IMG/VR virus record: IMGVR_UViG_648276651_000003
Span: 1 to 20,376 of that record
DNA: 20,376 nt
Origin: a virus
Lineage: Duplodnaviria > Heunggongvirae > Uroviricota > Caudoviricetes
Reading direction: 5' to 3' (one strand)
Each line of letters opens with the position of its first letter. Position 1 is the stretch's first letter. The notes under the pieces are model-generated. The model was not told the DNA's origin and ran no database searches. It was given only the letters and a program-made list of their open reading frames with translations. Position numbers and translations under genes: made by a program. This document shows, one piece after another, positions 11,105 to 11,584 of the stretch.

Positions 11105-11140
11105 CGAAAAATAGCCACTCCAAGATGGCCCATTAAAGCA

Positions 11141-11149
11141 TGGTAAAAT
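11141..11149 (+). promoter_or_regulatory. Candidate extended -10 promoter (TGgTAAAAT) for the 11180 moron gene
   Basis: tggtaaaat at 11141-11149, about 30 nt upstream of the AGAGGAG RBS; no good -35. Confidence 0.35.
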
Positions 11150-11179
11150 ACGTGTTAACCCCACAAAGAGGAGTTAGAC

Positions 11180-11419
11180 ATGGCTATTACCCTGCATCAA
11201 AAAGAAATCATGATTCTCATGACGGACCCCAACTTAAAAGTGCCGGTCCAACACACCAACTTCCCTTTTGAGCATCCATACAAAATTGATTCGGCTATAG
11301 AGCAGCTATATCGGATGGGATACATTACAGCAATACAGACGAAATCTGATTCTAGTTGGCTCGCCACTTCAATCACACCAAAAGGTTATGTCTTTCTTAA
11401 CGAGGCAGGGTTGGTTTAA
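11180..11419 (+). CDS. Hypothetical 79-aa protein (moron gene between Q and the lysis cassette)
   Basis: ATG with AGAGGAG RBS; bracketed by terminators at 11081-11104 and 11446-11466; no family recognised. Confidence 0.5.
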   Translation: MAITLHQKEIMILMTDPNLKVPVQHTNFPFEHPYKIDSAIEQLYRMGYITAIQTKSDSSWLATSITPKGYVFLNEAGLV

Positions 11420-11445
11420 TAGAATTTCAGCAACTGTGTATATCA

Positions 11446-11466
11446 AAAGTAAAACCCCGCTTCGGC
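11446..11466 (+). terminator. Intrinsic terminator (UUCG-type tetraloop hairpin plus T6)
   Basis: cccgc-ttcg-gcggg (11447-11460) followed by tttttt (11461-11466). Confidence 0.7.
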
Positions 11467-11584
11467 GGGTTTTTTCATTTATGGCCCAGGCTAAAAATTG
11501 CATATTAACCGTGAAACGCATAAGCCTGCGGCCTGAATTCTTTCCCCTCGTTCTGAGAGGATTCACAGCAATTGAGGGGGACCG

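Follow-up and report, generated by a model that had tools for sequence, protein, structure and literature searches.

The window, i.e. the whole stretch of 20,376 nucleotides that was analysed, is a lambdoid prophage by gene content, based on ORF calls and Pfam matches. On the minus strand lie the genes for a lambda-type integrase (102-1244) and for a CI-like repressor that contains an S24 peptidase domain (5360-6055). The other genes recognised are those for replication, Dam, RusA and DUF968, a Q-like gene, the genes of two holins together with a GH19 endolysin, and HNH, TerS and TerL genes. In the phage collection searched, all DNA matches to the window come from Klebsiella temperate phages.

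The feature under study, the open reading frame ORF79, lies between the Q-like gene and the first holin, where a first-pass annotation had placed a single-gene moron flanked by a Q-like antiterminator and a holin. Profile searches confirm the identity of both flanks. Upstream, a Q21-related gene (10451-11029, plus strand) matches PF06576 (DUF1133) at 1.1e-93 when its in-frame stop is replaced by Asn for the scan; against the Q21 chains in the PDB (6p18/6jnx) it gives an E-value of 1.2e-5, i.e. the relationship is distant. Downstream, the holin leader and first holin span 11476-11971 (plus strand), with the holin gene at 11585-11971 assigned to Phage_holin_8 by Pfam. The holin Pfam matches on this side of ORF79 are PF16931 and PF05449, and the lysis cassette after the first holin extends to 12868.

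The Q-like gene of the window carries a premature in-frame TAA at codon 47 (10589-10591), a position at which relatives have AAC or AAT; they read TTTAACCAG where the window Q reads TTTTAACAG. This stop is absent from all 30 related loci and from all nine loci with an identical ORF79 protein, in which Q is intact and 192 aa long. Unless the TAA is a sequencing error, the prophage is probably defective for late gene expression. The boosting of ORF79 by Q read-through that had been proposed earlier cannot hold for this copy, because its Q is cut at codon 47. If the stop is genuine, ORF79 would be expressible here only from a promoter of its own.

A candidate late promoter and Q-loading region (11003-11075, plus strand) comprises TTGCAA (11003-11008), a spacer of 14 nt, TGC and TTGAAT (11026-11031), followed by a leader. 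This candidate is weak, and the promoter scan called no site there. In an alignment of four phages, the 50 nt that follow the Q stop hardly vary, and they travel with Q into phages lacking ORF79, even into those that hold other cargo. Three loci with lambda-type signals (L034, L040 and L044) have, upstream of the first terminator, a lambda-like -10 with AACGATGGG after it; as checked in the lambda record, AACGATGGG is the pause-inducing sequence of lambda PR'. By these signals the first terminator in the lambda-type loci is the analogue of tR'. By analogy with them, we infer that the late promoter of the window also lies upstream of its first terminator.

This first, tR'-like terminator (terminator 1; 11078-11104, plus strand) consists of AAAACCCGC (11078-11086), TTAAAG and GCGGGTTTT (11093-11101), followed by GTG. 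Its hairpin starts 49 nt past the Q stop and has a folding energy of -14.6 kcal/mol (z -3.0). A terminator of this type had been predicted ahead of ORF79, and a GC-rich hairpin is indeed present at 11078-11101. Terminator 2 (11456-11475, plus strand) is formed by CCCGC-TTCG-GCGGG at 11456-11469 and a TTTTTT tract at 11470-11475, with a hairpin of -10.5 kcal/mol (z -2.6). A strong hairpin with a T-tract after ORF79 is thus found as proposed, but the interval originally given for it, 11446-11466, lies about 9 nt too far upstream. The terminator scan returned 10 sites compared to 3.9 +/- 1.8 expected in 3.8 kb; terminators 1 and 2 are the strongest of the ten, and the core stems of both consist entirely of G and C.

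Terminator 1 is bidirectional in form, with seven U on the minus strand compared to four U followed by GUG on the plus strand, and no minus-strand gene points at it. Because the plus strand has only four U before GUG, some upstream transcription would likely read through terminator 1 even without Q. A scan of the window against Rfam gave nothing at gathering thresholds; the sub-threshold matches at ~11040-11190 and 11376-11478 were rejected as terminator-hairpin look-alikes.

Between the two terminators lies ORF79 itself (11180-11419, plus strand), which encodes 79 aa and begins at the first in-frame start codon following a stop. A Shine-Dalgarno sequence, AGAGGAG (11167-11173, plus strand), is located 6 nt 5' of the ATG and is conserved in relatives, so that both the reading frame and the good ribosome-binding site described for it are borne out. 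The homologues are exactly 79 aa long in 31 cases among 34 loci and the window, and distant relatives have 80-89 aa. The ORF79 frame is the only one that is open throughout all clades, and nine pairwise comparisons give dN/dS ratios of 0.14-0.59. Antisense or alternative-frame coding was considered and rejected, the 62-codon antisense frame of the window being closed in relatives. On this comparative evidence ORF79 is a real protein-coding gene under purifying selection.

Sequence divergence is unevenly distributed over the gene. Among Klebsiella phages, the stretch from the Q stop through ORF79 codon 35 (11029-11285) is almost invariant with dS of 0-0.10; codons 36-79 (11285-11419) diverge with dS of 0.29-0.65, and the allele follows the lysis cassette on the downstream side. 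The pattern suggests that a recombination junction lies within the gene.

We then compared the interval between Q and holin across loci. The collection comprises three GenBank Klebsiella phages, 29 IMG/VR contigs and three complete E. coli chromosomes, together with metagenomic contigs carrying relatives of 35-39% identity and nine places with an identical protein. Widening the profile search brought in Citrobacter and Kosakonia as well as an E. coli relative of 89 aa, and two scans of species-representative genomes gave no ORF79 relative. In ~60 loci, the ORF79 homologue is located between the Q gene and the lysis cassette in nearly all cases with enough flank, the exception being one locus (L046) in which no Q gene was called upstream. 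The Q gene upstream belongs to PF06576 in the window and L001-L032, to PF06323 in L033 and L036, to PF03589 in L034 and L044-L048, and to PF06530 in L038. On the other side, the holins are of the Phage_holin_8/3_7, Phage_holin_3_1 and other types. In all clades the same order recurs from upstream to downstream, i.e. terminator, extended -10, Shine-Dalgarno sequence, ORF of 79-89 aa and terminator, the distal terminator being present in 13 of 14 cases. The comparison of this interval suggested by the first-pass annotation therefore finds ORF79 conserved in the slot along with the promoter element and the terminators.

The terminators keep their place while their stems change. Among the representative loci, all 13 with upstream DNA have a hairpin with a T-run 98-114 nt ahead of the ATG, and 13 of 14 have a second one, whose stem sequences are unrelated, 13-41 nt past the stop. 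A hairpin equivalent to terminator 1 occupies this position in every locus, whether or not ORF79 is present. The exception with regard to the distal terminator is the E. coli variant, where the hairpin has no T-tract and a 264-aa ORF comes next. In the prophage of E. coli F9792 (L044, 4270-5274), the 89-aa relative is followed by this hairpin, the 264-aa ORF and then the holin, an arrangement that may represent a two-gene version of the unit. The 264-aa ORF has no match in Pfam or PADLOC.

Sibling phages use the same slot for other cargo. Phages with a 96-98% identical Q hold TciA and STnc100 (L004) or a tRNA-Gly (L005) instead of ORF79. The STnc100 sRNA (Rfam RF02076, 81-83 bits) is located in the Q-to-holin slot at L004 3942-4130 and L007 2105-2293, and tRNA-Gly(UCC) at L005 3260-3334; thus, the slot holds RNA genes besides protein cargo. 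In L006, which has a different, lambda-type Q, no cargo is present, and the terminator and holin leader (2480-2625) are nearly identical to window 11450-11590. As far as these alignments go, the terminators are the module boundaries at which the phages swap segments. We also considered lambda orf-64, which occupies an analogous position, and found it unrelated to ORF79. Just downstream of the lysis cassette, L038 encodes a protein of the Acb2/Tad1-hairpin family, an anti-defence sponge family (6397-6690).

Upstream of ORF79, the candidate extended -10 of the earlier annotation is present where it had been placed: TGGTAAAAT at 11141-11149 (plus strand), 30 nt upstream of the gene and without a recognisable -35. 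The pattern occurs 5 times in the window compared to 2.0 expected, so the match alone is not significant, and its weight comes from being conserved in every clade. A TGnTAnAAT element is found 27-37 nt before the ATG in all of them, down to a protein identity of 33%. TGGTAAAAT is invariant in clade 1 and also present in L032, L037 and L038; clade 2 and E. coli have TGTTATAAT, and L040 has TGATACAAT. The extended -10 and the 30-40 nt preceding it are the same in L033 and L034, whose Q genes belong to PF06323 and PF03589, respectively. Since the element is the same behind unrelated Q families, it belongs to the cargo and cannot be a Q-specific late promoter.

This bears on the possibility that the extended -10 at 11141 is PR' itself and terminator 2 the true tR', with ORF79 inside the leader and terminator 1 merely ending early transcription after Q. 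Such an assignment would account for the fact that the window yielded no canonical promoter in the stretch from the Q stop to terminator 1, and for L006, where a terminator like terminator 2 is the only one between Q and holin. It is difficult to reconcile with the same promoter and upstream 30-40 nt standing behind the Q families of L033 and L034, which need different Q-binding elements. The lambda-type loci, moreover, have a lambda PR' -10 and the AACGATGGG pause element before terminator 1, and the 50 nt after the Q stop follow Q into phages that lack ORF79. We give this assignment hardly any credence and treat the extended -10 as the putative promoter of ORF79 in the following.

The region around this promoter element is unusually well conserved. 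The 76 nt upstream of ORF79 are better conserved than the coding sequence in each comparison (98.7% vs 86%, 85.5% vs 73% and 97% vs 73%), which hints at a regulatory site. Within them, the motif AAAATAGCCACTCCAA (11108-11123, plus strand) is located at about -47 to -32 with respect to the predicted start. It is kept in L032 (59% protein identity) and in L040 (37%; 738-753) and could be the binding site of a regulator. At the same place, clade 2 has a similar CACTCAA together with the inverted repeat TTTTGAC-N11-GTCAAAA (L033, 3926-3950). A search of the promoter region for inverted repeats gave a GTTAAC palindrome alone in the window and TTTTGAC-N11-GTCAAAA in clade 2, and no convincing operator-like inverted repeat common to the clades. 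Autoregulation of ORF79 is speculation.

Three further extended -10 matches in the window are located at 13356-13364 (plus strand), 13607-13615 (minus strand) and 13641-13649 (plus strand). They cluster near small ORFs with no Pfam match (13396-13704, 13701-13967 and 14045-14344, minus strand), and this cluster, with the lysis genes on one side and the HNH/terminase genes on the other, may constitute a second accessory-gene region.

The ORF79 protein had been described as having no recognisable features; the homology and structure searches lead to a different picture. An AlphaFold (AF2) model computed from a ten-sequence alignment has a pLDDT of 88 and comprises helices at residues 5-14, 33-46 and 67-75 and a beta hairpin at 49-65. 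In Foldseek, nearly all of the top 50 matches are MarR or PadR proteins with a probability of 1.0 and TM scores of 0.6-0.7; normalised to target length the TM score is 0.3-0.4, and the best E-value is only 3e-3, the domain being short. A profile of the family searched against the PDB matches BldR (3f3x) with an E-value of 1e-3 and YjcQ (2hgc) with 0.01. Based on the model, ORF79 is a stand-alone MarR-type winged-helix core that is distantly DUF2513-like and devoid of the MarR dimerisation helices. A fold search against BFVD returned generic winged-helix viral proteins only.

The match to DUF2513 (PF10711) is below threshold. ORF79 scores 16.6 bits (E = 0.011) and does not reach the Pfam gathering threshold of 29.6 bits; the best scanned relative, from L036, comes to 29.2 bits and thus also stays below it. 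Of the scanned family members, nine have a Pfam match, and in eight of these DUF2513 ranks first; precomputed matches to PF10711 exist for several relatives from Citrobacter. ORF79 is on these scores at most a distant relative of DUF2513. At the sequence level the best relatives are DUF2513 and YjcQ, which likewise are small winged-helix proteins that stand alone and resemble ORF79 in size; their likeness provides a fold, not a mechanism. A literature search gave a mention of DUF2513 only in an unrelated context. There is no match of ORF79 to the NCBIfam models, nor to the defence models of PADLOC-DB with the window protein up to an E-value of 10 and the E. coli relative up to 1.

The comparison with the MarR family shows which parts of the fold are retained. 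Residues 1-76 of ORF79 align to residues 33-107 of BldR, i.e. to the winged helix-turn-helix core. MarR proteins of ~140 aa have N- and C-terminal helices that form the dimer interface, whereas ORF79 with its 79 aa does not. In BldR the wing is basic (RRIRDSKDRR, of the Asp-x-Arg type); in the ORF79 family neutral residues take its place and the wing arginines are missing. BldR RRIRDSKDRRIV aligns to the family consensus tAvqSkadssWlA, in which Lys55 alone is conserved. The family is also acidic, with a pI of 4.5-6.4 in 13 of 14 members. DNA binding by the modelled domain is thus possible but not assured, because the family is acidic, the basic wing of MarR is replaced and no operator is common to the clades.

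Taken together, the ORF79 unit is likely a moron, a single gene that forms a transcription unit of its own and is inserted between Q and the lysis genes of a lambdoid Klebsiella prophage. At the level of sequence the proposal of a single-gene moron is supported by the absence of the gene from siblings, by its own promoter element, by the flanking terminators and by a dip in GC content, which is 0.41-0.44 over 11080-11560 compared to 0.52-0.55 in the flanking Q and lysis genes. Promoter element, ORF and terminator 2 are co-inherited, independent of the Q family upstream and of the holin downstream. A point against the moron reading is the strictly fixed position in ~60 loci, which is unusual for free cargo; the role of the gene could be tied to late expression.

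In the lysogen, the host sigma-70 polymerase would start at ~11156 without a -35 element and end at 11475, giving a transcript of ~320 nt. This would provide low constitutive expression of ORF79 from its own promoter. Terminator 1 would end a short constitutive leader from the late promoter, and terminator 2 would keep the lethal lysis genes silent and shield the cell from holin expression. Upon induction of phages with an intact Q, the Q-modified polymerase would pass both terminators and ORF79 would be the first late product.

Alternatively, ORF79 could be the first gene of a Q-dependent late operon, with an inactive extended -10. The protein, for instance an early-late helper against the host's responses to virion or lysis proteins, would then be made solely upon induction. 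ORF79 is on the same strand and always directly after the unit of late promoter and terminator, the U-tract of terminator 1 is short, and the extended -10 match taken alone is not significant. Anti-defence genes are also found near the lysis module in related phages, e.g. the Acb2/Tad1-like gene of L038. Set against these points, the distance of TGnTAnAAT from the gene is kept in all clades while its surroundings and the protein diverge to 33% identity. In 13 of 14 representative loci a terminator stands between ORF79 and the holin, and the gene is dispensable, as sibling phages do without it. We consider a purely Q-dependent gene quite unlikely and retain the moron with its own promoter as the preferred reading.

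What the protein might act on can be narrowed down by its neighbours. As ORF79 homologues are found with four Q families and several holin families, the target most likely belongs to the host or to other phages and not to the late/lysis module. This disfavours ORF79 as a dedicated regulator of the late/lysis module, acting for instance on Q-dependent transcription or on lysis timing. Such a role would agree with the winged-helix fold and with a slot strictly conserved over ~60 loci from Klebsiella, E. coli, Citrobacter-type and metagenomic phages. However, since ORF79 stands next to Q genes of four unrelated families and to holins of several, it is unlikely to have a specific partner in the module. 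Close relatives manage without ORF79, and recombination at the flanking terminators and the holin leader, which the phages share, would also be expected to keep the gene in its slot. We regard a dedicated module regulator as very improbable. Our best guess is that ORF79 is an accessory regulator or inhibitor benefiting the lysogen. We rate the chances that it acts by binding DNA, perhaps at the unusually conserved region of its own promoter, a little short of even; binding to a protein is rated somewhat lower, and any other mode lowest. It is unlikely that ORF79 founds a new class, namely a stand-alone acidic winged-helix prophage factor with a protein or non-canonical nucleic-acid target that is not a MarR-like repressor.

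If the new-class reading were true, ORF79 might reprogramme the host or prevent superinfection by other phages. The fixed position past the terminator of the late promoter would then allow two modes of expression, at a low level in the lysogen and in a burst upon induction, when ORF79 would be the first late product, and the finding would bear on the phage susceptibility of clinical Klebsiella strains. The exact ORF79 protein of the window is recorded on 945 contigs, mostly from K. pneumoniae, and the 89-aa E. coli relative occurs in 41 of 5,426 complete E. coli genomes. The family is annotated only as 'hypothetical protein'. The moron arrangement itself is ordinary, textbook material; the interest lies in a family that is common in clinical Klebsiella and unstudied. 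If ORF79 affects phage resistance or host regulation, it would be relevant to Klebsiella phage therapy and to the way prophages shape clinical strains. The unit also offers a clean and experimentally tractable example of a moron promoter conserved across deep divergence, and the comparison shows terminators delimiting exchangeable modules.

Lambdoid prophages carry host-changing genes in the slot between Q and the lysis genes. In Stx phages, stx genes and tRNAs are the cargo of the Q-to-S slot. ORF79 occupies the same slot, past the terminator of the late promoter and before the holin, and would likewise be read through by Q-modified polymerase. The cargo of the Stx phages is a toxin or RNA, whereas ORF79 is a predicted cytoplasmic winged-helix protein of 79 aa; its likeness to Shiga toxin is one of position only, and there is no evidence of a virulence role for ORF79. 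The published hallmarks of a moron are extra DNA, an own promoter, an own terminator and deviant composition (Cumby, Davidson and Maxwell 2012, PMC3594210). Like the lambdoid morons described there, such as HK97 gene 15, ORF79 is an extra gene that is missing from close relatives and stands between two conserved genes, and it has a promoter-like element and a terminator of its own and a GC content unlike that of its neighbours (PMC3594210). The HK97 gene 15 moron is located in the tail operon and encodes an unrelated product, whereas ORF79 resides in the slot between Q and lysis genes, and its expression from the repressed prophage is a prediction.
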